Positions 2,301 to 56,516 of a stretch of 64,000 nt of DNA are shown here, piece after piece. Every line of letters begins with the position of its first letter. Position 1 is the stretch's first letter. The notes under the pieces were generated by a model. It was not told the origin of the DNA. It made no database searches and worked only from the letters and a program-made list of their open reading frames with translations. Origin of the DNA: a virus; the IMG/VR virus record IMGVR_UViG_3300030012_002528, positions 28,262 to 92,261 of that record, one strand, 5' to 3'. The position numbers and the translations under genes are program-made.

Positions 2301-3282
2301 TAGACTCGATGATGCTCTAGCCAAGCTAAACAAAAACTTCGGCTCAGGTTCGGTATTTCATTTAGGAGAAAATGAAGCATTTGAAAAACTAGAAAGAATA
2401 CCAACAGGCTCGCTTGGTCTTGATGTTATTACAGGAGGAGGCTATCCCCTTGGACGAATCATTGAGCTATTTGGGTGGGAGTCTTCAGGAAAGAGTACAC
2501 TGTGCATACACGCGATAGCACAAGCTCAATCAATGGGACAGAAGTGTGCATTTGTTGATATGGAACATGCATTCGATAAAAACTATGCAGAATCATTAGG
2601 AGTAGACACCGAAGACCTTATATTTTGTCAACCAGGTAGTGGAGAAGAAGCTATAGAAATAACTAAAACACTCGCTGACACAGGAGAAGTGGGGTTAGTT
2701 GTAGTAGATTCAGTAGCCACTATGGTTCCTTCTGTTGAAGCAGAGGGAGAAGCTGGCGAAAGCAAGATGGGCGTACACGCAAGACTTATGTCGCAAGCTA
2801 TGCGTGTTCTATCCCCTATTGCAAGTAAAAATAACTGTACACTAATTTTCGTAAATCAGCTCCGACACAAGATAGGAGTTATGTATGGTTCCCCAGATGT
2901 TACCACTGGTGGAAATGCACTTAAATTTTATTCATCAATACGTATTAAACTTACTTCTAGCAAGTCTGCTGGTAATAAAGAGAAGGTTGACGGTGTTGAT
3001 AGACAAGTATCTAACTTAGTTACCGCAACAACGGAGAAAAACAAAACACATCCTCCGCTACAAAAGCATTCTTTTCAGCTAAGATTCGGTATAGGTATAG
3101 ATGCAAAAGAAGAAATAGTAGACATGGCTATAGGTCTGGGTCTCATAGACAAAAAAGGCGCATGGTATAGTTATGAAGGAACACAACTTGGTCAAGGAAA
3201 AAAAGCAGTGTTTGCTTTACTCGAAGAAAACCCTGACCTTGAAGATACTTTGAAAGAGCAAATAATTAAACATTACAATTAA
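2293..3282 (+). CDS. recA: recombinase RecA
   Basis: GWESSGKST Walker A, VVVDSVA, ARLMSQAMR, TTGGNALKFY. Confidence 0.98.
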   Translation: MSSRLDDALAKLNKNFGSGSVFHLGENEAFEKLERIPTGSLGLDVITGGGYPLGRIIELFGWESSGKSTLCIHAIAQAQSMGQKCAFVDMEHAFDKNYAESLGVDTEDLIFCQPGSGEEAIEITKTLADTGEVGLVVVDSVATMVPSVEAEGEAGESKMGVHARLMSQAMRVLSPIASKNNCTLIFVNQLRHKIGVMYGSPDVTTGGNALKFYSSIRIKLTSSKSAGNKEKVDGVDRQVSNLVTATTEKNKTHPPLQKHSFQLRFGIGIDAKEEIVDMAIGLGLIDKKGAWYSYEGTQLGQGKKAVFALLEENPDLEDTLKEQIIKHYN

Positions 3283-9286: not shown

Positions 9287-9396
9287 ATGCCCCCTCCCAA
9301 AAAATTCACGTTGATGTCGTGTGGAAGTAATATATATTACAATACCCCGCTAAAATTTTTTGCAAGGTACCCCCCTGTTGATTTTGCAAGTGTTCG

Positions 9397-9545
9397 CGTG
9401 TAGGTTTTTGTGTGGGGGTGGGGGGTGTGTGGAGAGGTAGGTTTGTGGTGTGTGGTGGTGTGGGGGTGGTGGGGGTGTAGGTATGTTGTTGTTGGTAGTG
9501 TTGTTTCTTTGTTTGTGTGGTGGCTCGCTGGCGTGCGCTCGTCTT
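9397..9545 (+). repeat. G/T-rich low-complexity tract (G4-capable)
   Basis: almost no A or C over ~120 bp, several G4-6 runs. Confidence 0.8.
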
Positions 9546-9593
9546 TTCTTATATATATAAGTTATATTTATTATAATAATAATGTCCTTTTAA

Positions 9594-9625
9594 TTTGGAT
9601 AATAGAAATATAATTCGTATATTCA
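9594..9625 (+). promoter_or_regulatory. promoter, first of the early module array
   Basis: TTTGGATA-N16-TATATTCA. Confidence 0.65.
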
Positions 9626-9724
9626 TACTATCGGAGGGGATGTATCCTTTGATATTGTTCTTTGAAATCTTGGTAAGTCCTACAGATTGTAGGCAGTATT
9701 TTTTTACCTACTAAATTTTGAACA

Positions 9725-10057
9725 ATGAAATTACGATATCAACTTGCGATGTTATTCGCTACATTATTCCAATTACTTGCTATGACATTCTTAGTCTTGT
9801 TTTATGACCTTGTCTTTCATACCTGTAATGACATATCGCCAACCTTCGCGCTTGGCTCTTTATATTGTCAGATAGTTGCATTGGCTCTGTACTTTGTTGC
9901 TGATTACTTACTCTCTAAGAAAGGCGACTCTCAGCAAAGCGCACCAAAGCCTAAGCGACATTATAAAGAGTGGTCAGAACGTAGATTCAATATCTTGTTT
10001 GCGCTCTGTATCTTTGCTTTGTATGTTTGCTTTATGGTTTTTATTTGTAGCCATTAA
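9725..10057 (+). CDS. three-TM membrane protein
   Basis: three hydrophobic segments. Confidence 0.65.
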   Translation: MKLRYQLAMLFATLFQLLAMTFLVLFYDLVFHTCNDISPTFALGSLYCQIVALALYFVADYLLSKKGDSQQSAPKPKRHYKEWSERRFNILFALCIFALYVCFMVFICSH

Positions 10058-10356: not shown

Positions 10357-10387
10357 AGCCTCGCCTTCTGGGTGGGGCTTTTTTTTT
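10357..10387 (+). terminator. intrinsic terminator
   Basis: AAGCCTCGCC-TTCTG-GGTGGGGCTT + T run. Confidence 0.8.
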
Positions 10388-10500
10388 GCCTCATCACGGG
10401 CAAGCCGTGATAAAGAATTGAGGCGAGCGAGCGAGAAAAAAATGACATAAAAAATTAGGATATGTAAGAAAAATTTTGTATACGTGTGCGTGAGCATTTC

Positions 10501-10635
10501 TTAACAAATTTTAACGAAATTTATTTGCATAGTTTAAAATGCCGTCAGAAGCCCATAGAGACGTTTTAAGAGCATTTGGTGTGGTTTTGGATCCATCACA
10601 CACGAGACTCTGAGTTTTGCCCTTAGATGCAATTG
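10501..10635 (+). repeat. ~135-bp noncoding element, copy 1
   Basis: colinear with 15434-15569 (TTTAAAAT, CGTTTTAAGRGCATTTG, CACACACGA, TCTGAGTTTTG). Confidence 0.8.
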
Positions 10636-10725
10636 TTAATAACTTTTTCAATTAAATTTGGATAGGTCAATTATTTTTCGTATACGCGCATACGTGTGCA
10701 TTAGTGTAATGGGTGTTAAAATGCG

Positions 10726-10791
10726 TTAACATTCCTTAACACTTTTTTTATACATAGGATTTGTTTTATCCAAATTGTTTTACTATATTCG
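10726..10791 (+). promoter_or_regulatory. promoter with TTAACA-N4-TTAACA 42 nt upstream of the -7 box
   Basis: TTAACA 10726/10736; TATATTCG 10784. Confidence 0.65.
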
Positions 10792-10832
10792 TAGAAGAGA
10801 TGGAGGGGTGGCTTTAACTTAAAAACTGTAAT

Positions 10833-11219
10833 ATGACAGCGAACGAACGAATACTGACTTGTATCAGTAAAGACTTTCCCGAAGCAATAGTGCAAAGGGC
10901 AAAGGAATTGGGTACGACTCTTGTTGACTTTAAAATGGGGGTTTTTGATGCGGAAACTAATTGCTTGATGGCAACCTTTGACAAGGTCGATGTGGACGAT
11001 GATTCGATAGTGGTGCAAACGGCTATGACCTTGCAACTGATGGAGCACGTAGGCTTTAGAATACAAACGGCTGAGGAGTCGAACTTGACTCTAAAACATC
11101 CAACCTTAGTTTTCTTCTTATGCTTTCCACCACAAAAGTTGATAGACCATGTGCGTGTAGAACTTGACCTTGATGACATACTCAGCAAGGCAATGGATGG
11201 AGACGATGACGATGAGTAA
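10833..11219 (+). CDS. hypothetical acidic protein
   Basis: 128 aa after the promoter. Confidence 0.7.
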   Translation: MTANERILTCISKDFPEAIVQRAKELGTTLVDFKMGVFDAETNCLMATFDKVDVDDDSIVVQTAMTLQLMEHVGFRIQTAEESNLTLKHPTLVFFLCFPPQKLIDHVRVELDLDDILSKAMDGDDDDE

Positions 11220-11286
11220 AATTGATGGGGTATGGGGCTACCTTAACGGTAGCCCCTTTTATAAAAAAATTAAAAATAAAAAACAG

Positions 11287-11430
11287 ATGAAAAAGTTAGT
11301 GTATATTGTTATTGGGTTTATTATTGTAGGCATGGTTTCTACATCATGTAGTAGAATTAACAGTTGTAAAGGACATCCTGGAATAACGCAGGATTTCGAG
11401 AACACCCAACCTAAAGGAGAACATTCTTAA
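11287..11430 (+). CDS. small lipoprotein (47 aa)
   Basis: MKKLVYIVIGFIIVGMVSTS-C lipobox-type signal. Confidence 0.6.
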   Translation: MKKLVYIVIGFIIVGMVSTSCSRINSCKGHPGITQDFENTQPKGEHS

Positions 11431-11451
11431 AATACGGTTTTTTTGTTCAAT

Positions 11452-11480
11452 GCCTCACCATATGGTGGGGCTTTTTTTTT
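11452..11480 (+). terminator. intrinsic terminator
   Basis: GCCTCACCA-TA-TGGTGGGGC + T9. Confidence 0.8.
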
Positions 11481-11532
11481 GCCTAATCACGGCTTTGCCG
11501 TGATAAAGAATGCGCCCGAAAAACACGAAAAA

Positions 11533-11561
11533 AAAGTTATCAACATTGTGTGGATAACTTT
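11533..11561. promoter_or_regulatory. inverted DnaA-box-like pair
   Basis: AAAGTTATCAACA-TTG-TGTGGATAACTTT. Confidence 0.65.
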
Positions 11562-11622
11562 ATTTGTTTATGTAAATTATTTTTTGTATTCGCGTATACG
11601 CATATTTAGATGTTAATTTTTT

Positions 11623-11688
11623 TTAACATTCGTTAACACGTTTTTTGTTGCTTTTAATTTGGATAAAAGGAATTTATTACTATCTTTG
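11623..11688 (+). promoter_or_regulatory. promoter with TTAACA pair 42 nt upstream of the -7 box
   Basis: TTAACA 11623/11633; TTTGGATA 11658; TATCTTTG 11681. Confidence 0.75.
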
Positions 11689-11708
11689 TTGAAGTAAAAC
11701 GAAACATT

Positions 11709-12419
11709 ATGGCAATAAATAATTATAATTTTAGGACAGGTAACATAGTACATTCTTTAGATGTTAAACATTCGGCAAATTCGAAAATAGGGAAAGGTAT
11801 AGTATTGCAAACGTATCATTACAGTATTGAACAGGTAGAAAATAATGATTTTACCTTGGATGCATTTAACTGTATGGACTGTCCATATAGTTTTAATCAA
11901 AACAATGGTAAAAGTGGTAAATGCTATACTCATAAAGGTATGCAGTTAATGGGGTTATTATCTAAACTTGAAAGCCTACACAAACAAAATTTGCAAGGTA
12001 AGATAAAAGAATTTAATTCAGATAATTTTAGAAAGTTTATTTCCCATAAATCAATCAAGACAGTTGACCTTATCCGATTCGGTGCCTATGGCGAAGCGGT
12101 TACACTACCTTTAGAAGTTAGGGATACATTATTCGATGTTAAAAATATTCTAAAGTGCAAAGTTACGTCATATACGCATCAATGGAGAACGGCAAACGAA
12201 ACCCGTTTCATGGCTTCTACGCATAACCTTGCCGAAATGCTACAAGCGAAAAGACTAGGTTACCGATGCTTTACCGTAACTTCTGAAGCAATAGAAGATG
12301 CTTTTAATTGTCCTGCTTCTAAAGAAAGCGAACGTAAAAAGACCTGTGTACAATGTGGTCTATGCGATGGTCAAGTTAGCGGCAAACGTAAAAAGGATAT
12401 CTATATCCTTAAGCACTAA
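11709..12419 (+). CDS. Cys-rich radical-SAM-like / gp88-like phage protein
   Basis: CMDCP, KCY, RFGAYGE, YTHQWR, CPAS...TCVQCGLC. Confidence 0.6.
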   Translation: MAINNYNFRTGNIVHSLDVKHSANSKIGKGIVLQTYHYSIEQVENNDFTLDAFNCMDCPYSFNQNNGKSGKCYTHKGMQLMGLLSKLESLHKQNLQGKIKEFNSDNFRKFISHKSIKTVDLIRFGAYGEAVTLPLEVRDTLFDVKNILKCKVTSYTHQWRTANETRFMASTHNLAEMLQAKRLGYRCFTVTSEAIEDAFNCPASKESERKKTCVQCGLCDGQVSGKRKKDIYILKH

Positions 12420-12484
12420 AAAATAGGGCAATTAATTTTGCCCTTTCAATTCTTTTTATTAACTTCAATTTAAATTAAAAAACA

Positions 12485-12679
12485 ATGGGATACAAAACAA
12501 TATTTTATTACGAAACCTACGATGGCATAAGACATCATTTCCTAACACGATTTTGCTACCGTCCAAGTGCAACATTGGCTTGGAAACAATTAAAGAAAAT
12601 GCTTAGTGAGAAGAAAGATAATATTCTCTGTATAGGTTATGATATAGGAGATGAAAATATTATTGAAATTAAATCATGA
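12485..12679 (+). CDS. hypothetical protein
   Basis: 64 aa. Confidence 0.6.
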   Translation: MGYKTIFYYETYDGIRHHFLTRFCYRPSATLAWKQLKKMLSEKKDNILCIGYDIGDENIIEIKS

Positions 12680-12801
12680 ATATATCAGTTAAACTAAACT
12701 ATAACGGAAGTATAACTTTATTTGCAGTAGTGCAAGGACAGTTAATAAGTAAAGAATATTCTTGTGGAGTAGGTAAAGCGAAAAAACTTTTTCAAGAAAA
12801 A

Positions 12802-12833
12802 TTTGGAAATTAGAAAAACATTTTGTAACTTAG
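12802..12833 (+). promoter_or_regulatory. promoter
   Basis: TTTGGAAA-N16-TAACTTAG. Confidence 0.65.
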
Positions 12834-12849
12834 AGGAAACAATGAAACA

Positions 12850-13053
12850 ATGAAAAAAGAAATTTATAAAATAGGAACACTACTAAAAGAGACTAAACTA
12901 TCAAATGCTCAATTAACGAAAGTTATACAGACAAGTATGGATGACTTAATCCAAGCAGGAGATACAGAAGACGAAGCCCTAGATAGACTATCCAAGATAA
13001 TGAATATATCAGGAGTCAAAGTAAGGAAAGCATACCTAGGGAATTTGAAATAA
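12850..13053 (+). CDS. hypothetical protein, possible HTH
   Basis: 67 aa, LSKIMNISGVKVRKAY. Confidence 0.6.
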   Translation: MKKEIYKIGTLLKETKLSNAQLTKVIQTSMDDLIQAGDTEDEALDRLSKIMNISGVKVRKAYLGNLK

Positions 13054-13072
13054 TTTGTTTCGTTGTTCATTT

Positions 13073-13143
13073 GAGCCTTGCTCTCACTAGACCGAGATGC
13101 TTTAGATTAGCACGGGGTCTACCGAGGGTAAGGCTTTTTTTTT
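13073..13143 (+). terminator. extended three-tier hairpin terminator
   Basis: GAGCCTTGCTCTC/GAGGGTAAGGCTT, TAGACC/GGTCTA, TGCT/AGCA, then T run. Confidence 0.7.
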
Positions 13144-13205
13144 GCCACGATAAATCGTGATAAAGAAGTGAGGCAAATAAAAAATAAAAAAAACAGGCGT
13201 AAAAA

Positions 13206-13237
13206 CAAAGATACGACTTTTTTTTAAATTATCCAAA
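13206..13237 (-). promoter_or_regulatory. antisense promoter
   Basis: reverse complement reads TTTGGATA-N16-TATCTTTG. Confidence 0.75.
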
Positions 13238-13291
13238 TTTTTCTTGCGAAAGTTACCAACATATTGTCGCTGAGAATGTTGATAAGTTTTA

Positions 13292-13323
13292 TTTGGATTT
13301 TAAATTTATTTGTTTTATATTAG
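13292..13323 (+). promoter_or_regulatory. promoter
   Basis: TTTGGATT-N16-TATATTAG. Confidence 0.65.
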
Positions 13324-13332
13324 AGGAAACAA

Positions 13333-13686
13333 ATGAGATATATTATGCAATTAAACACTATTGAAGACTTGAGACATCACGGAGACTTGGCTCTCTTATT
13401 ACTTAAGATAAGAATGACCTTAACCTATAAGAAGGTAGAAGGATTCATTGTACACGCTGACGAGGATAAGATAAGTTTTATTCCCGAAGGAGAGTACCAT
13501 CCAACTCTTTGTAAAAAAGAACTTGCACCCAGTGGTTACGAATGGGACGAGGGGAGAGATGTTCTTGAAATTTGTGTAAACTGCGAAGAGAACTACGAAG
13601 GATGCGAGCCCACCTTACCATACAATAAACTTGCGGAGGTATTATGTGGAGGCAAGTTTTACGGAGACGTTGCTTTCGGTAAGTAA
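13333..13686 (+). CDS. hypothetical protein
   Basis: 117 aa. Confidence 0.7.
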   Translation: MRYIMQLNTIEDLRHHGDLALLLLKIRMTLTYKKVEGFIVHADEDKISFIPEGEYHPTLCKKELAPSGYEWDEGRDVLEICVNCEENYEGCEPTLPYNKLAEVLCGGKFYGDVAFGK

Positions 13687-13717
13687 CGCACACTGGTAGC
13701 ACTGTTTTCGGTTAGAG

Positions 13718-13746
13718 TCCTCACCCAATGGGTGGGGATTTTTTTT
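13718..13746 (+). terminator. intrinsic terminator
   Basis: TCCTCACCCA-A-TGGGTGGGGA + T8. Confidence 0.8.
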
Positions 13747-13815
13747 AACTTTTTTTTTGAAATTTTTTTTGTGATAAAGAGTGTGCGCCCGAGGTGAAAA
13801 AAAAAGAGTCCTCCA

Positions 13816-13847
13816 CAAAGATACAACTTTTTTTCGATATATCCAAA
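13816..13847 (-). promoter_or_regulatory. antisense promoter
   Basis: reverse complement reads TTTGGATA-N16-TATCTTTG. Confidence 0.75.
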
Positions 13848-13866
13848 TTATTTTAGATAAATTTTT

Positions 13867-13932
13867 TTAACGTTTATTAACAGCGTGGTAATAAATTAAG
13901 TTTGGTATTTCCATTTATTTTAACTAACTTTG
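13867..13932 (+). promoter_or_regulatory. promoter with TTAAC pair 42 nt upstream of the -7 box
   Basis: TTAACG 13867/TTAACA 13877; TTTGGTAT 13901; TAACTTTG 13925. Confidence 0.7.
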
Positions 13933-13984
13933 AGAGGTCAACGACCTCGAACGGGGTTGCTTTTTTTAACCTTAAATGTAAACA

Positions 13985-14236
13985 ATGAAACATTTAGCAT
14001 TAAGTGAGATGAATGGAAATACTTTCTATTCAAATTCGTTAGGAATGACTCTTAGCGTAAAAGACAACAAAGTCTTTGATTACAAAGGTATTGAGATGCC
14101 TATTGATGACTTGCAAGTAGACACCTTGTACGTTGAATTTCTTGACCAACCAAAGTTTCAAGAACAAAGGTACAAAGAGTATCTTGCAAAGGTAAAAGAA
14201 ATGGGCAACTATTCGCCTCTATTGTTTAACTCTTAA
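13985..14236 (+). CDS. hypothetical protein
   Basis: 83 aa. Confidence 0.7.
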   Translation: MKHLALSEMNGNTFYSNSLGMTLSVKDNKVFDYKGIEMPIDDLQVDTLYVEFLDQPKFQEQRYKEYLAKVKEMGNYSPLLFNS

Positions 14237-14247
14237 ATTGTTTTCAA

Positions 14248-14511
14248 ATGGAAAATGCTTTAAACCCAAATGTCACTGGCATTTACATCTTGGAAGGTAG
14301 ACCTACCCTTCCCTACCGTTACTATCTCAAGAAGATAGATTCTACTCATTTTCAAATGGCATACGTTGCTGATGGCGAGGATGCTTCGATTGTGAATGAT
14401 GCTTTTTGTTACCATATTGGCGAGCATCGTCAGAGACCTTACTATGCTGACGTTAGGTCTTGGCTAAAAGGAGGCGAAGCCCCAACTGACAAGACCTACA
14501 CTTGGGAATAG
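14248..14511 (+). CDS. hypothetical protein
   Basis: 87 aa. Confidence 0.7.
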   Translation: MENALNPNVTGIYILEGRPTLPYRYYLKKIDSTHFQMAYVADGEDASIVNDAFCYHIGEHRQRPYYADVRSWLKGGEAPTDKTYTWE

Positions 14512-14642
14512 GCTCACGTGCCCACCGAGAGGTGGGTATCGTGATAAAGAGTGTGCGAGAAAAGACCGAAAAAAAAAGCAATGGGAGGGCGAGAAAAGAA
14601 AAAAATCAAAAATGTCTTTATCACAAATTCAAGACTCCTCCA

Positions 14643-14674
14643 CTAAGATACAAAATACTTTTCAATAATCCAAA
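14643..14674 (-). promoter_or_regulatory. antisense promoter
   Basis: reverse complement reads TTTGGATT-N16-TATCTTAG. Confidence 0.7.
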
Positions 14675-14801
14675 CACTTTAACATTTTTTTTAATTTAAT
14701 TTTAACACTCGTTAACTTGTTTTTAACACCCTTTAACATTTTGGCTATTGCATATGTCCTTACAATGTACTACTTTTGTCTTAAACAAATTATTTAAATT
14801 T

Positions 14802-14963
14802 ATGAAAGCAGTAATCCGTAATATCAAGACAGGTAAGTATCGCGTAGCCCCTGTGTACGCACGTTATAAAAAAGACCGCGTTGAGGTCATACGCGCGTTG
14901 GAGCAGTCGCTACCCGCCCACGAGCGGGTGGTGGAGGTGCATCTGAACGAAAGGGGCAAGTAG
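14802..14963 (+). CDS. small basic protein (53 aa)
   Basis: MKAVIRNIKTGKY...; promoter -7 box TACTTTTG at 14771. Confidence 0.6.
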   Translation: MKAVIRNIKTGKYRVAPVYARYKKDRVEVIRALEQSLPAHERVVEVHLNERGK

Positions 14964-15037
14964 CCCCAAGCCCACCGAAAGGTGGGCATCGTGATAAAGA
15001 ATGTGCGTGAGCAAAAAAAAAAAAAAATTATCCCATA

Positions 15038-15069
15038 CTAAGTTACGATTTTTTTTTGATATATCCAAA
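15038..15069 (-). promoter_or_regulatory. antisense promoter
   Basis: reverse complement reads TTTGGATA-N16-TAACTTAG. Confidence 0.7.
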
Positions 15070-15433
15070 TAAAGTTATCAACACGATGTGGGTAAGTTGT
15101 AGGTGTTAAATTATGTTATATATTAGGTTATATCAGATAAATTAACTATATGGGGGTGTCGGCATTTCGGCAAAGTTATTTTACCTACAATAGTTAACAT
15201 ACTTTAACTATATATATTATTATATATAACATATATATACTATAGAGCCATATAACGGCATATTCCTTTTCCTTTTAGATAAATTAACGTGTTGCGTTAA
15301 CACTTTTTAACGCAGAATACTTGCGTATGTGCAAGTTGTGACAGGTAGAGTCTTCTCACACTCGGTTTTTTGGGTTTGGAAAATAGTGGTAAAATGTGTA
15401 ACTTAGTGGGTTATTATAAGCATACTTTTGCAA

Positions 15434-15569
15434 TTAACGATTTTTAACACAATATATTTGGATAATTTAAAATCCCTTGAGAGGCTCATATTTGCGTTTT
15501 AAGGGCATTTGAGGTTCTTTTGGAACAACCACACACGAAGGTCTGAGTTTTGAGCATACAGACGATTTG
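15434..15569 (+). repeat. ~135-bp noncoding element, copy 2
   Basis: colinear with 10501-10635. Confidence 0.8.
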
Positions 15570-15700
15570 ACCTATGATTAGGACATATGGTGTTGGTAAG
15601 TTGTTAGTAACTATATATATGTATATTTGGATATGTCATATATTCTTATATACGTGTGCGTGTATTCCTATTGTAGGTAAATTTCTTAGCCGAAATTTTT

Positions 15701-15766
15701 TTAACATCTGTTAACACGTAGATTGATAATTTAATTAGAATAATTCAAAATGAATCACTATATTTA
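15701..15766 (+). promoter_or_regulatory. promoter with TTAACA pair 42 nt upstream of the -7 box
   Basis: TTAACA 15701/15711; TATATTTA 15759. Confidence 0.7.
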
Positions 15767-15807: not shown

Positions 15808-16713
15808 ATGAATTTAGAAAACTTATTGAACAACATTGAAAACGCTAACGCAAAGGCTACTGAAAACCTTAATGGTATTCGTGAGAAGTTATTCGAAGTC
15901 CAAGACATCACGATTGATGCTCCTTTCGAAAACTATGAGAATCCAAAAACGCAAGTCATCTACACAAGCGATGGGCGTTACTTAGGAACGTGTGGAGATA
16001 AGTACAAGTCTATACAGCCAAGTACGTTTCTTGACCAAGTGGTGCAGTCTGTAGAGGGTTGTGGTTCTGAGAAATTTGATTTATCCAAATTAACTTACAG
16101 GGAAGTAAAAAACGGATGCGAAATTATCTTCCGACTACCTTTAGGTAATTCAACTTGGATTAATCGAAATGGCAAAAGTGAGGATAGACAAAACTTCATT
16201 GACTTCCGAACAGGGTTTGGAGGTACGGCACGTACTCAAATCAGCACATACGAATATCGTCTGATTTGCTCTAATGGAATGATGGGATGGGCTGAGCAGT
16301 CTATGCTACAAGCGAAGCATACGGAACGTATGAATGCCAAAGCATTGCTTTTCTGTGATGCGATTGTTCAACTTGCTGAGTCTATTGAGAACACTACGGA
16401 GTTGTACAAGCACTTAGACAAGATATCGGTAACTGATAAGGAAATTGATGCCTTTGCTCGAAAGTTATCTAAGATAAATTTAACTGAGGATATGGATAAG
16501 GTGTCCACACGTAAAACGAACATCTACAATTCACTACGTGAGTCCATCGCTATCGAATTTGCTCGGAGTGGTACATCAGCATATGGATTGCTACAAGGTG
16601 CCACGCACTTCACTAACCACGTTGCAAGTGGTCATGGAGAGGAATATATCCTTGCTCGGAGTGGTGCCAAGACTAACGCACTTGCTCAGTCTTTGGTAAC
16701 TGCAATGGTATAA
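15808..16713 (+). CDS. DUF932/DUF945 family protein
   Basis: LG.....Y..IQ, RLICSNGM, KHT, GTSAYGLLQGATHFTNH. Confidence 0.85.
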   Translation: MNLENLLNNIENANAKATENLNGIREKLFEVQDITIDAPFENYENPKTQVIYTSDGRYLGTCGDKYKSIQPSTFLDQVVQSVEGCGSEKFDLSKLTYREVKNGCEIIFRLPLGNSTWINRNGKSEDRQNFIDFRTGFGGTARTQISTYEYRLICSNGMMGWAEQSMLQAKHTERMNAKALLFCDAIVQLAESIENTTELYKHLDKISVTDKEIDAFARKLSKINLTEDMDKVSTRKTNIYNSLRESIAIEFARSGTSAYGLLQGATHFTNHVASGHGEEYILARSGAKTNALAQSLVTAMV

Positions 16714-21418: not shown

Positions 21419-21729
21419 AAGAAAATAAACTAATTGCAGACTTTATGGGTGTGCAATACAAGTCAGATGAAGACTACTTTAAAGAGTTGGCAGAGATGCG
21501 AGAAGATGGTATCTTCTACGAGCAAGGATATATGGAGAGTCAACTCAACTACCACGAGTCTTGGGATTGGTTAATGCCTGTAGTAGGTAAAATAACACGA
21601 GATGAAAAGTATTGGGAGAACGAATACCGAGAGTATCTAATGGATATTATTCCTTACGCAATCATAGAAGATGTCTACGATGCAGTAGTAGGATTTATCA
21701 AAAATTGTGTATCTTTAGAGAAAGAATAG
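21415..21729 (+). CDS. Phage ABA-sandwich-like paralog 4
   Basis: ENKLIADFM...YHESWDWLMPVVGKI...YDAVVGFIK. Confidence 0.7.
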   Translation: MKENKLIADFMGVQYKSDEDYFKELAEMREDGIFYEQGYMESQLNYHESWDWLMPVVGKITRDEKYWENEYREYLMDIIPYAIIEDVYDAVVGFIKNCVSLEKE

Positions 21730-21731
21730 AG

Positions 21732-22223
21732 ATGAATATATTTGTACTACATAAAGACCCAATTGTATCTGCAAAGATGCATTGCGACAAGCACGTACCT
21801 AAGATGGTCGTGGAGTTATATCAGCAGATAGGCTCTGCCTTGCGTAGGTATGGTGCAACAGATGATGTTATGCCGACAACCAAAGGTGGTACGCCATTGA
21901 AAGGTGGCTACCACAATCATCCTTGTACACGATGGGTAGGAGATAGCCGAGATAATTTTAGATGGGCAGTACAACATGGGTTAGCGTTGTGCGAGGAATT
22001 TAAACTTAGATACAATAAACCTCACTACTGCGAGGATGGTATCCGTATGATGGGAGAGTTGGCAGACTTGATTCCTCAAGGGGAGTTGACTGAGTTTGCT
22101 CAAGCAATGCCCGATGAATGCAGACAACCAAGTGCAGTACTTGCGTATCGTATCTACTACAAAGTAGATAAGTCACGCTTTGCTAAGTGGGAGAGAGGAA
22201 GAGAAGCACCGAGTTGGTGGTAA
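21732..22223 (+). CDS. pyrimidine-dimer DNA glycosylase (DenV-like) family protein
   Basis: MNIFVL...HCDKHVPKM..E..Q, HNHPCTRW, FAQAMP, AYR.YY. Confidence 0.8.
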   Translation: MNIFVLHKDPIVSAKMHCDKHVPKMVVELYQQIGSALRRYGATDDVMPTTKGGTPLKGGYHNHPCTRWVGDSRDNFRWAVQHGLALCEEFKLRYNKPHYCEDGIRMMGELADLIPQGELTEFAQAMPDECRQPSAVLAYRIYYKVDKSRFAKWERGREAPSWW

Positions 22224-22245: not shown

Positions 22246-22563
22246 ATGACTGATAAGTTAGTTAATTCGCTATGGGAAGCGATAGAAAGAGAAGGATATT
22301 TTAAAGAAGATGTTTTAAGTTCGTCACGTAAGCGTGAGTTTGTAGATGTTCGTGTTGCTTTATCCCAATTACTTTATTATAGATTAGGACTTACGCAGTA
22401 CAAAATTGCACTAATTCTTAATCGCCATGAGCATTCTACTATAAATCATTATGTCAATCACATGGATGAGAGAGATAATTTTGATTACAAAGAACTGACA
22501 AGGGTACTCAATAGAGTTGTAGACAAATACGAGGAACACATTGAAAAATTTCAGTACGCATGA
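22246..22563 (+). CDS. DnaA domain IV-like HTH protein
   Basis: SSRKREFVDVR...LTQYKIALILNRHEHSTINH. Confidence 0.75.
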   Translation: MTDKLVNSLWEAIEREGYFKEDVLSSSRKREFVDVRVALSQLLYYRLGLTQYKIALILNRHEHSTINHYVNHMDERDNFDYKELTRVLNRVVDKYEEHIEKFQYA

Positions 22564-22931
22564 AAAGTAATTTAGTTGATGAACTTTGGCAAGTCGTTGA
22601 GAATCAAGGATTTAACAAAGAAGAAATTGTAGGCAGTTCACGTAAGCGTGACTTAGTTGATGTGCGAATAGCAATGGCTCACGTATTACATTTTAGAGTG
22701 GGAATGACTCAATCAAAGATAGCCAAGATACTTGGACTTGCAGACCACACTACTATCAATCATTATGTTAACAAATGTAAAGCACGTAATGATTATGATT
22801 ATAGAATAATGATGAACGAGTTTGCAGAAGTTATTGAGAAGTATGAGGATGCTGAAATTTTAAATGAGATAAAAAAAGTTTGGAATAAGCATAAGGGAGG
22901 TATGTTAGATTTTTATCCACCAATAGACTAA
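22560..22931 (+). CDS. DnaA domain IV-like HTH protein (tandem paralog)
   Basis: SSRKRDLVDVR...MTQSKIAKILGLADHTTINH. Confidence 0.75.
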   Translation: MKSNLVDELWQVVENQGFNKEEIVGSSRKRDLVDVRIAMAHVLHFRVGMTQSKIAKILGLADHTTINHYVNKCKARNDYDYRIMMNEFAEVIEKYEDAEILNEIKKVWNKHKGGMLDFYPPID

Positions 22932-27003: not shown

Positions 27004-27441
27004 ATGATGAAAATTAAACTGACATTTGTCTTTATCACGTTTTTTTGTTTATCAGTTTTTGGACAATTAAGCGAAGGTGTTTTTTATAAGGTAAAAAAAG
27101 TTGTAGATGGTGACACCTTTTGGTTGTACGATTCTGATTGGGATACTTATAAAGTAAGACTCATCGGTGTGAATACTCCCGAAGCCTACACATTTGAAAA
27201 TGTAACAGAAGAAGTAGGAGGTAAAGAAGCATCTGCGTACACGAGGTATTTAATAGAAGGAGAGTACGTGAGACTTGAATTTGATGTGGAAAAGTATGAT
27301 AAGTATAACAGAGTTTTAGCGTATGTTTGGTTACACAACGGAGAAATGCTAAATGCTAAACTTATAGAAAAAGGTCACGCTGAAGTGGTAAGGTATTATC
27401 CTAATGTAAAGTATTTTAATTACTTTAAGCGTTTGGAATAA
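27004..27441 (+). CDS. thermonuclease (SNase) with signal peptide
   Basis: VVDGDT, VRLIGVNTPE, DKYNRVLAYV, N..LI..G.A; hydrophobic N-terminus. Confidence 0.9.
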   Translation: MMKIKLTFVFITFFCLSVFGQLSEGVFYKVKKVVDGDTFWLYDSDWDTYKVRLIGVNTPEAYTFENVTEEVGGKEASAYTRYLIEGEYVRLEFDVEKYDKYNRVLAYVWLHNGEMLNAKLIEKGHAEVVRYYPNVKYFNYFKRLE

Positions 27442-54329: not shown

Positions 54330-56516
54330 TTATAATTTACAGTTACCTTCAATTTTATTTTGCTGAATTAGTCTACTTATTTGATAGTCTAAATTGTTTA
54401 CATTTTGAGTATCTCTTCTTTCGACTATAGGAGATAGAGATATATTCTGGTCTTTTACTATGAATACATCTTTTTTCTTTCCTCCTTCTTTTGTTGTAAG
54501 TTTAACGATTTGAGCATCGGAGTCCTGTACAGCATTCTTCTCTAAAACTTTTAAATTATCTTTAGTGATTACTTTAATACTTCTTTGAGTGCCTCCTACG
54601 ATAACTTCGTCTTGTAATATTTGCTGACCCTCATTGATTGTGCCTGTTTCCTCTGCCGTCTCAATGTCTATGGAAGGTAGTTCGGAAACTTTAGTAATTA
54701 CTACACTTGTTTTACCCAGCTTGTCAGCTTGTTTAGGTTTCTCTACCACTGCTGCATCCCCTAGTATTTCTTGAATATACTCTAAAAGTTCATTACCATC
54801 GAAGCCTTTTTGAAAAGAGAATATAGGCTCTCCTGTAACTTTGTCTTTTCTAGAAGCTTTGGCTAATAGGCTTTTCTTCTCAGTTTTTTCAAAGTCCTGA
54901 TATGATTTTGAAGATGCGATATCTCCCTTCCACCCTCTAGCAGATACGTATGCCTTACCTCCTACTTGTAATTTATTTAAAATATCTCTAACAATGAAGT
55001 CTCTAACGTTTTTAGGGACCACATTAAGAACATTTAAAGATACAATAGAATCGTATCTTTTGTTGATGTCTTGAGACTTAGTGTAGGTAGGAGGTGTTTT
55101 CCCTTCCCACAGTTCTGTATTAGGCTCAAATGACTCTACGTCCTTACCAAACTCATCTCTCATAGCATCTGTTCCTAAACCTAGGCCTGCTCCATAATCA
55201 AGTACGGTACCGTCTCCTAACATTTTTGCAGCTTTTCTATATGTAGCTAAAGTGTTGGCTCTTTGTGTAGTAAAAGAATTTTTAGCTAATTCTTCATCGG
55301 ATAGTTCGACTAAACTTACTTCGCCTGCTCCTGTTTCTGGTTTTACTAGTCTAAACCTTCCTGCCCCTATTTGTTCTGCCTCCCCCATAGCTACTAAGTT
55401 TTCCCATAACCTCATAGCTTCAATGGTCTGTGCAGTATCAGAAACAATTTCTCCATCAAGACTTTCAGCAGCCACACGATACATCTCTGTTCCTATTCCG
55501 TTTCTACGATATTCGGGACTAACAGATATAGTGTCTACTTGGAAACCATTTTCAGTTTCCACTAGTCTTAGACTACCTATTCTGTTCTGGTCAATTGATG
55601 CTACTATTGCTACTCTTCCAGGACTTTCCTGTATGTCGAAATTAACAGTTGCATCTTCTTCTTGATTGATTTCCGTTTCTTGAATATTGATATATTCTAC
55701 GGTAGTTCCTTCTGGTATGTCGTACTTGCCCAACAAATCCCCTTCTGGCACTTGGTCGGCAGCTTCTTTTTTTATGGTAGTAGAAGTTCTAGAATCAGGT
55801 AGAGAAGACTCGCTAGTTTGGTATAACCTCGCTGCGGATTGAAGTTCTATTTTTCCATCCTCTAACTTATCTAACTGTTTGTTTCCATTATCATAGATAG
55901 CAGCACTGATGTCTGTTATCAGTTTGTCCATAAGCTCACTCAAAGGAGTTTTCTTGCCCTCTATGAGACCTTCATTTACAAAATCATTAAGGAGACCATT
56001 AAGATTTTTAACATTATTGTTAGGAGCAAAATTAGCTAGTTCTACAACATCAAATGATTTACGATTTACAATGTAATAGATACCATCTCTAGCTTGTGCC
56101 ACTAATTGATTAACCCCTTTTGTAAATGAGTTAGCAATATCTTTAACTATATTACCAGTTGATTCTATTTTAATGCCTTTGTTATTCTTTTTTACTAGAG
56201 ACATTTCTACTCCCTTATTTTGGAAGTCTTCTTTGATAGCTTGGTCAATAGATGTTGTATGTACAATAGCATCCGATAATAATAAATTATTATTAGGAGT
56301 TCTAGATGCAAAAACTACTATAGGTTCCCCATTCTCATCCGATAGATAAGAAGCAGTTTCATTCTTATCTATAGAAGCTTGGTAGTACACAAGAGCTTGT
56401 TCTGCAGACAAGTAAGGTACTTGACTGATAGACTTATACAAATTAGACTCCTTACCGTTATCGGCAAGAACGCTAGTTACTACACCATTAGTTCTTGTTA
56501 TCTTACAACTTGCCAT
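54330..56516 (-). CDS. polyvalent protein: GNAT acetyltransferase + class I SAM methyltransferase
   Basis: VSPEYRRNGIGTEMY...SD....AMRLW; VLDYGAGLG...FEP...YDSIVSLNVLNVV...LQVGG. Confidence 0.8.
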   Translation of the reverse strand: MASCKITRTNGVVTSVLADNGKESNLYKSISQVPYLSAEQALVYYQASIDKNETASYLSDENGEPIVVFASRTPNNNLLLSDAIVHTTSIDQAIKEDFQNKGVEMSLVKKNNKGIKIESTGNIVKDIANSFTKGVNQLVAQARDGIYYIVNRKSFDVVELANFAPNNNVKNLNGLLNDFVNEGLIEGKKTPLSELMDKLITDISAAIYDNGNKQLDKLEDGKIELQSAARLYQTSESSLPDSRTSTTIKKEAADQVPEGDLLGKYDIPEGTTVEYINIQETEINQEEDATVNFDIQESPGRVAIVASIDQNRIGSLRLVETENGFQVDTISVSPEYRRNGIGTEMYRVAAESLDGEIVSDTAQTIEAMRLWENLVAMGEAEQIGAGRFRLVKPETGAGEVSLVELSDEELAKNSFTTQRANTLATYRKAAKMLGDGTVLDYGAGLGLGTDAMRDEFGKDVESFEPNTELWEGKTPPTYTKSQDINKRYDSIVSLNVLNVVPKNVRDFIVRDILNKLQVGGKAYVSARGWKGDIASSKSYQDFEKTEKKSLLAKASRKDKVTGEPIFSFQKGFDGNELLEYIQEILGDAAVVEKPKQADKLGKTSVVITKVSELPSIDIETAEETGTINEGQQILQDEVIVGGTQRSIKVITKDNLKVLEKNAVQDSDAQIVKLTTKEGGKKKDVFIVKDQNISLSPIVERRDTQNVNNLDYQISRLIQQNKIEGNCKL

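Follow-up and report, generated by a model that had tools for sequence, protein, structure and literature searches.

The window analysed here (W; 64,000 nt, bases 28262-92261 of the 92,261-nt IMG/VR contig IMGVR_UViG_3300030012_002528, which was judged 61% complete; all coordinates are those of the window) comes from an uncultured phage and contains an array of repeated 10-nt sequences, GTGATAAAGA (hereafter the box), lying between small genes. The array is a hyperplastic early-gene region, in which small orphan open reading frames (ORFans) are split by composite terminator-plus-promoter modules. With good confidence, the architecture of these modules resembles that of the promoter-early stem-loop (PeSL) cassettes described in T4-type phages (Arbiol et al. 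2010, PMC2839356; Comeau et al. 2014, PMC4122927). For the box, the overall explanation that we tentatively favour is an oriented, sequence-specific element set in PeSL-like modules, and not an RNA element.

Six exact plus-strand copies of the box occur within 4.7 kb, compared with 0.0115 expected under a first-order Markov model (0.23 per strand per 92 kb), and the 92,261-nt contig holds no other plus-strand copy. There are two minus-strand copies, one at 14615-14624 and one inside an open reading frame (ORF) at 27029-27038. An initial annotation of this DNA had reported the same six copies, against a rough estimate of under one per 64 kb, as well as the complement at 14615; the counts given here bear out both. 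The copies are as follows:

10407..10416, plus strand: box copy 1, exact match to GTGATAAAGA, in a module without a facing promoter
11500..11509, plus strand: box copy 2, exact match, followed by an A-run and a DnaA-box palindrome (~11535-11557), without a facing promoter
13157..13166, plus strand: box copy 3, exact match; homology to the related locus L108 restarts at 13156
13771..13780, plus strand: box copy 4, exact match, without a hairpin partner
14541..14550, plus strand: box copy 5, exact match, left arm of the window's single inverted pair
14615..14624, minus strand: inverted copy, reading TCTTTATCAC on the plus strand, right arm to copy 5 across a 64-nt spacer
14991..15000, plus strand: box copy 6, exact match

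Every copy is preceded at 4-30 nt by a terminator stem or hairpin, well inside the ~50 nt from a module-closing terminator or hairpin that had been noted initially, and is followed by R, a G/C-rich and T-poor stretch, and a run of seven to 15 adenines (A7-A15). Terminators are themselves enriched (15 found, 4.4 expected). The box is missing after terminator hairpins with no long control module behind them (10065, 11234, and 12425 in W; ~3450 and ~3750 in L108), which indicates that it belongs to the start of the module and not to termination as such. Each long control module opens with the box, whose distance from the gene is long and variable, ranging from 176 to 820 nt.

To place the array in context, related loci (L numbers) were taken from metagenome contigs retrieved with a profile of the neighbouring DUF932 protein (PF06067; gene at 15808-16713). 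Loci L105, L107, and L108 encode DUF932 proteins that are 97-99% identical to that of W and carry the exact 10-mer in every module, showing the conservation in related phages on which the initial annotation had made its proposal depend. L108 contains six copies, all on the plus strand, and the 10-mer is invariant in all six modules, with differing flanks. Loci L116-L130 (notably L123, L124, and L126) carry a DUF932 allele that is merely 45-48% identical to that of W. Protein identity between L124 and W is 85-92% downstream of 17.1 kb, and L123 is ~88% identical to W where the two overlap (19.5-19.9 kb). This high downstream identity, despite the divergent DUF932 proteins, indicates that L123 and L124, and likewise L117, are sister alleles of the same phage group as W. 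In these sister alleles (notably L123, L124, and L126) the box is found as inverted pairs, GTGATAAAGA-N20..53-TCTTTATCA(C/T), directly after terminators. At one orthologous site, neither arm of the pair varies between four allele groups, while the spacers and flanks are unalignable. Two loci, L121 and L122, show the variant ATGATAAAGA ... T(T/A)TTTATCAT, in which the change is symmetric (ATGAT...ATCAT).

The more distant loci L113-L115 have no GTGATAAAGA and display a different plus-oriented repeat, TAAGATAAA, present in 6-11 copies per locus, all on the plus strand and around terminators (for example, at 82, 1624, 1670, 2844, 2912, and 4505 in L115). Canonical DnaA boxes lie nearby, 4-6 nt upstream of each -33 element. 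This repeat may be an analogous lineage-specific polar box. A 17-mer scan of IMG/VR returned 16 single matches at chance level (e.g., L011, a coding sequence), and a scan of the same collection for the inverted-pair pattern returned 74 matches, essentially all in coding sequences of unrelated gene families (L186 was checked). Neither phi4:1 nor crAssE-Sib shows box clustering or such an array. Near and distant DNA searches of the phage collection and single-protein locus searches in IMG/VR yielded no relatives of W.

Comparison of W with L108 reveals five ORF-sized replacements set between control modules that are 75-95% identical. The right junctions of these replacements fall at box -1 (W 13156), at box -9 (W 11491), or 3-19 nt past the stop codon, and the left junctions fall near the next ATG or after an A-run. 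In L108 the first cassette holds a homologue of the 14803 gene, in L123, L124, and L126 the DUF932 gene is found across the box and an AT-rich block, and the region is mosaic with respect to L108, L107, and L124. To judge from these alignments, the relatives swap ORFs between conserved control modules by recombination within the modules. The likeness to PeSL cassettes has three components: repeated composite modules of a terminator hairpin plus a host-type early promoter, the position of these modules flanking ORFans in a hyperplastic early region, and the replacement or relocation of ORFs between close relatives, with breakpoints that fall within the modules. The array differs from PeSL cassettes in that its promoters are of the Bacteroidota -33/-7 type and not sigma-70, its modules are 170-800 nt long and multi-part (10-bp box, purine/A tract, DnaA boxes, TTAACA boxes, and inverted promoter cassettes), and its invariant 10-mer with facing promoters is without a described PeSL counterpart.

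Recombination among the modules is evident and PeSL-type repeats are homogenised in T4-like phages, and the box could in principle be a functionless hitch-hiker in a repeated module, kept uniform by homologous recombination (gene conversion). We consider this very unlikely, because more than 20 independent copies, with flanks that are unrelated within 1-10 nt, all have the same 10-mer, and conversion tracts would not end so sharply. Integron attC sites were also considered and rejected, since the exchanged units are ORF-sized and most W copies are single-armed, with the limit that an integrase was not searched for exhaustively.

Promoters that face back towards the box are a further component of the array. 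Bacteroidota promoters have the consensus -33 TTTG and -7 TAnnTTTG. The initial annotation had recognised four minus-strand promoter-like sites of identical 16-nt spacing; all four are present, the spacer separating TTTGGAT(A/T) from TA(T/A)CTT, and, by the Bacteroidota consensus, they read TTTG-N20-TA(T/A)CTT(T/A)G, two of the four being perfect matches:

13206..13237, minus strand: facing promoter TTTG-N20-TATCTTTG, perfect match
13816..13847, minus strand: facing promoter TTTG-N20-TATCTTTG, perfect match
14643..14674, minus strand: facing promoter TTTG-N20-TATCTTAG
15038..15069, minus strand: facing promoter TTTG-N20-TAACTTAG, with a DnaA-box-like palindrome directly upstream (~15072-15097)
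14967-14953, minus strand: terminator-like hairpin GGGGC-N5-GCCCC followed by TTTCGTTC, a plausible 3' end for the 15.03-kb RNA and for no other of the four antisense RNAs predicted, already described in the initial annotation

The same promoter pattern is found ahead of plus-strand genes at 11658, 13901, 12802, and 13292. Alignment defines a standard early promoter cassette, composed of a DnaA box TGT(G/T)GATAAC, TTTATTTGG-ATA, a 16-nt spacer, and the -7 box, which runs forward in L115 and at W 11546 and backward in the modules denoted D-G. The facing promoters are reversed copies of this cassette, which is standard for early promoters in the phage group, and they are very probably active.

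The initial annotation had offered as its first interpretation a small RNA (sRNA) or decoy family. On this account, the facing promoters make short antisense RNAs that share UCUUUAUCAC and act as sRNAs, as decoys, or as antisense or convergent silencers of the upstream early gene. Several observations are consistent with it: the four minus-strand promoters, 29-39 nt away from the box, are of consensus grade and persist in L108, L107, and L105 although the flanks have diverged, the promoter pattern exceeds expectation across the genome (21 found, 6.5 expected), and one RNA has the terminator-like end listed above. The sequence UCUUUAUCAC may also be similar to the boxA core CUCUUUA. Yet the box is equally conserved where there is no facing promoter, namely in two of six modules in W, two of six in L108, and all inverted-pair alleles, and these cases indicate that the box is independent of the facing promoters. 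With a promoter of their own at four of six copies in W, four of six in L108, and none at the inverted-pair alleles, the boxes were also rejected as a small-RNA gene family. The predicted RNAs have just a 5' U-run and YTCTTTATCACRA in common, and they show no covariation and no consensus pairs (RNAalifold, 0 pairs). Three of the four RNAs are without a 3' end signal, an Rfam search gave no meaningful match, a search for sites complementary to the box, on which a trans-acting RNA might work, found none besides 14615-14624, and the promoters are simply the standard early cassette reversed. The sRNA account fits no more than four modules and is supported only in part, and we regard it as unlikely. 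Convergent antisense promoters of the P22 sar/Pant type are a comparable known system, in that a strong promoter is directed against a neighbouring unit, at its 3' or leader region, and yields a short antisense RNA. The W promoters differ from that type in the lack of a defined terminator for three of four RNAs, the lack of a conserved RNA structure, and the existence of the box without a promoter.

Two further sets of early-promoter signals were noted. Direct repeats of the form TTAAC-N5-TTAAC occur 21 times on the plus strand and once on the minus strand (10501, 10726, 11623, 13867, 14702-14733, 15194-15711, 16738, 17581, 19075, 20195, 23141, and 23642), at either ~41 nt or ~21 nt upstream of the -7 box; the two distances suggest two promoter classes under one regulator. 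The forward promoter cassettes at 9594, 10454, 10657, 11562, and 15626 have a -7 box that reads TATACG(T/C)G or TATTCGCG, not TAnnTTTG, followed by alternating GTGTGCGTG, and may represent a distinct promoter class.

The box also bears a likeness to the binding site of the replication initiator DnaA. Its complement, TTTATCAC(R), matches the DnaA-box consensus TTWTNCACA (PMC5043019) at seven to eight of nine positions. Canonical DnaA boxes (TTATCCACA and TTATCAACA) are present in the same modules as the box, and the -33 element has canonical as well as variant DnaA boxes directly upstream of it. Two proteins encoded in tandem by the phage match DnaA domain IV (PF08299; 34.7 and 19.6 bits):

22246..22563, plus strand: P1, DnaA-domain-IV-like, 105 amino acids (aa), recognition helix EHS(T/L)INH, candidate box binder
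22560..22931, plus strand: P2, DnaA-domain-IV-like, 123 aa, canonical DHTT(I/V)NH helix, above the Pfam cut-off

P1 and P2 are 45% identical and have distinct helix-5 motifs, the positions of which correspond to the base-contacting DnaA residues 433-439 (contact residues in DnaA are 399, 423, 432-435, and 438-439; PMC5043019). The EHS(T/L)INH helix of P1 is conserved in the L108 and L124 orthologues, and P1 is present in all three box-bearing contigs that cover the region (W, L108, and L124). A sequence comparison of P2 with the PDB gave no match, and genes for IHF/HU and for sigma-70 region 4 were not found in the contig. The box shares with DnaA boxes (PMC5043019) an asymmetric site of 9-10 bp that is usable singly in either orientation, as well as the TTATC/NCAC cores, and canonical boxes adjoin it. 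The box differs in having A instead of T at position 4, a conserved part that extends beyond the 9-mer, and no origin context.

From this anatomy we infer, with less than even confidence, that the box is a putative protein-binding site acting at the DNA level. It would be recognised as duplex DNA by a sequence-specific monomer, either as a single copy or as an inverted pair, a proposal that draws on the coexistence of single and inverted forms, the variable spacing, the strictly intergenic position after terminators, and the absence of a universal promoter. Spacers of 20-64 nt and the mixture of single and paired forms suit monomer sites better than one obligatory hairpin, and across all alleles it is the sequence that is kept, not the pairing. 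The initial annotation had given a polarised protein-binding signal as its second interpretation, and of its two proposals this one remains the better. The binder would most likely be one of the two DnaA-domain-IV-like proteins, with the diverged P1 favoured, because the box resembles a DnaA box, canonical boxes lie in the modules, and two such proteins are encoded; the identification itself is doubtful, with only a modest chance of being correct. Positioned at the module edge, the bound box could act as a boundary or roadblock against transcription entering the neighbouring cassette, whether from the inverted promoter cassette (start 22-32 nt from the box) or from read-through. Binding might also help to switch off the immediate-early modules, a possibility raised by the P1 and P2 genes, which are located late in the early region, in its class II (TTAACA-box) part.

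It should be noted that several observations weigh against this reading. The first early module (9290-9725) is without a box. The resemblance to DnaA boxes is partial, with the mismatch at position 4 and a G at position 9 in four of six copies, and the conserved 10-mer runs 2 nt past a 9-mer DnaA box. The co-occurrence of P1 and the box is drawn from three related contigs, and L124 has a canonical DnaA box without encoding P2. The orientation of the box with the genes and its position after terminators would equally suit a promoter for a phage RNA polymerase (RNAP). Lastly, folding of the inverted-pair alleles gives hairpins (z-scores of -1.4 to -3), some with variable inner stems, and one is a perfect 31-bp palindrome (z = -14); the inverted pairs may therefore retain a structural role in single-stranded DNA (ssDNA) or RNA.

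This last point leads to an explanation in which the functional form of the box is a hairpin or cruciform, in ssDNA or read-through RNA, that serves as a processing, priming, or recombination site, the single arms in W having decayed or found new partners. The four small hairpins described in the initial annotation are present in the sequence:

10393..10411, plus strand: small hairpin ATCACGG-GCAAG-CCGTGAT, its 3' arm overlapping the box, not kept in relatives
11486..11504, plus strand: small hairpin ATCACGGC-TTT-GCCGTGAT, without a counterpart in the orthologous L108 module
13146-13159: small hairpin CACGAT/ATCGTG, from sequence
around 14541: small hairpin TCACG...CGTGA, from sequence

Hairpins of this type are missing upstream of the box in the orthologous L108 modules, where the box directly follows the terminator T-run, indicating that they are not a conserved part of the element. 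Besides the 10-bp outer stem of the inverted-pair alleles and the palindrome, a hairpin form would account for the symmetric change in L121 and L122 and for the three W copies that pair GTGAT with a new upstream ATCAC. However, 11 of the 12 unique W-type copies score at most 7.5 of 10 for a partner, yet their 10-mer is exact, and the arm sequence itself is conserved beyond mere pairing. Nor is there a consistent strand bias in the G-U wobble asymmetry of arm mismatches, and the exchanged units are ORF-sized and not box-to-box, unlike those of attC. We therefore judge the hairpin form quite improbable. The hairpin promoters of the N4 virion RNAP (PMC4496689) likewise combine a small hairpin with an A-rich stretch on first-entering DNA, as do three W modules, but the W hairpins are found in only three to four of six modules and not in the orthologous L108 modules, and their loops and stems vary. 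An N4-type hairpin promoter was rejected, as no conserved 5-7-bp stem with a 3-nt loop is present at every W promoter and no N4-like RNAP was found.

The RNAP alternative requires some knowledge of the phage itself. The W portal protein shares 36% identity with its counterpart in the epsilon crAss-like phage crAssE-Sib and 29% with those in Cellulophaga phages phi4:1 and phi17:2, the DNA polymerase is ~28% identical to crAss-like phage DNA polymerases, and the contigs related to W are of marine metagenome origin. Together, these affinities identify the phage, at the level of sequence comparison, as an uncultured marine relative of the epsilon crAss-like phages and the Cellulophaga phi4:1 group. 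Genes for the terminase, portal, and large virion proteins lie on the minus strand to the left of the array, and replication genes lie to its right. Related epsilon crAss-like phages encode a divergent virion RNAP, and the early promoters of the phi14:2 virion RNAP are not known. The box could thus be the promoter or core recognition element of a crAss-type virion RNAP firing rightwards into each immediate-early cassette, with the host-type promoters being additional or later. Such a role would fit the co-orientation of box and genes in six of six modules in both W and L108, its place as first element after the preceding terminator solely where a control module follows, and its structure, as a 10-nt invariant core followed by a purine-rich stretch is like that of phage-RNAP promoters. 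A 2379-aa protein of W also matches a crAss RNAP subunit weakly (E = 4e-6, tblastn). On the other hand, the convergent inverted pairs in sister alleles are odd for promoters, the distance to the gene is long and variable, host-type promoters are already ahead of each gene, and the first early module is boxless. No RNAP was found in the 61%-complete contig, the 2379-aa protein is without DFDxD/DxDxD and without a sequence match in the PDB, and the array is absent from phi4:1 and crAssE-Sib. On this evidence a virion-RNAP promoter is fairly improbable. A fuller version, in which GTGATAAAGA is the crAss-type virion RNAP promoter that marks each immediate-early unit on first-entering DNA and the facing promoters or inverted boxes provide antisense control, is a little less probable again; if it is true, GTGATAAAGA would be the long-sought virion RNAP recognition element of this lineage.

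The form that the initial annotation had suggested for the polarised signal, a Chi/KOPS-like or injection-related one, has fared less well than the binding box. The strict polarity of the box near a putative genome end (G/T-rich tract at 9400-9540, also found in L108) speaks for it. In 41 Flavobacteriaceae-type genomes, however, the box occurs about once per 200-300 kb and is as rare as the reversed control; it is also 10 nt long, restricted in the phage to one intergenic array, and present as inverted pairs in sister alleles. This lack of enrichment excludes a Chi/KOPS-like role in Flavobacteriaceae-type hosts, and the proposal as a whole is largely refuted, leaving it a negligible probability.

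Several other features of the region were recorded. From ~9550 rightwards there are only small plus-strand ORFs, and the DUF932 gene and one match to Pyr_excise are the only recognisable families. In a Pfam scan of 20 early ORFs, which did not include the DUF932 gene, 19 had no significant family, and ORF 21612-22223 matched Pyr_excise (PF03013, E = 5.4e-07, above the cut-off); domain scans of early ORFs gave nothing informative for the array genes. Ahead of the early genes, between the terminator of the last upstream gene and the first early cassette, lies a tract (9290-9560) that is first C-rich and then G/T-rich (~9400-9540, GTGG/GGGG repeats). Its L108 counterpart at 2740-3040 keeps the composition, with sequences that are not alignable. 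Possible roles for the tract are those of a genome end, a packaging site, or an origin. In both allele types the last box copy is followed by an AT-rich block of TATATA type (15100-15300 in W; 2750-2900 in L126), which may serve as an origin or as a cluster of promoters. A 134-nt non-coding direct repeat (10501-10634 and 15434-15567, 75% identity, no Rfam match) is also conserved in L108, L116, L117, and L123. It may give rise to an early non-coding RNA, by analogy with the intergenic regions of phi14:2 that are highly transcribed. Outside the early region, a gene at 54330-56516 on the minus strand encodes a 728-aa protein with GNAT acetyltransferase and methyltransferase domains and sits between those of giant virion-type proteins of 1772 and 2379 aa.

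The PeSL-like frame of the array is of a known kind, and the polar 10-bp box, the reversible DnaA-box-headed promoter cassette, and the DnaA-domain-IV paralogues make it a distinct variant. Such an arrangement would carry PeSL-type modular shuffling from T4-like phages to marine crAss-related (epsilon/phi4:1-like) phages of Bacteroidota. It offers a set of cis-elements for early control, namely the 10-bp polar box, the DnaA-box-headed cassette used in two orientations, and the TTAACA boxes. If the box is indeed the operator of a diverged DnaA-domain-IV protein, this phage group would have re-used the DNA-binding module of DnaA as a transcription insulator or regulator.

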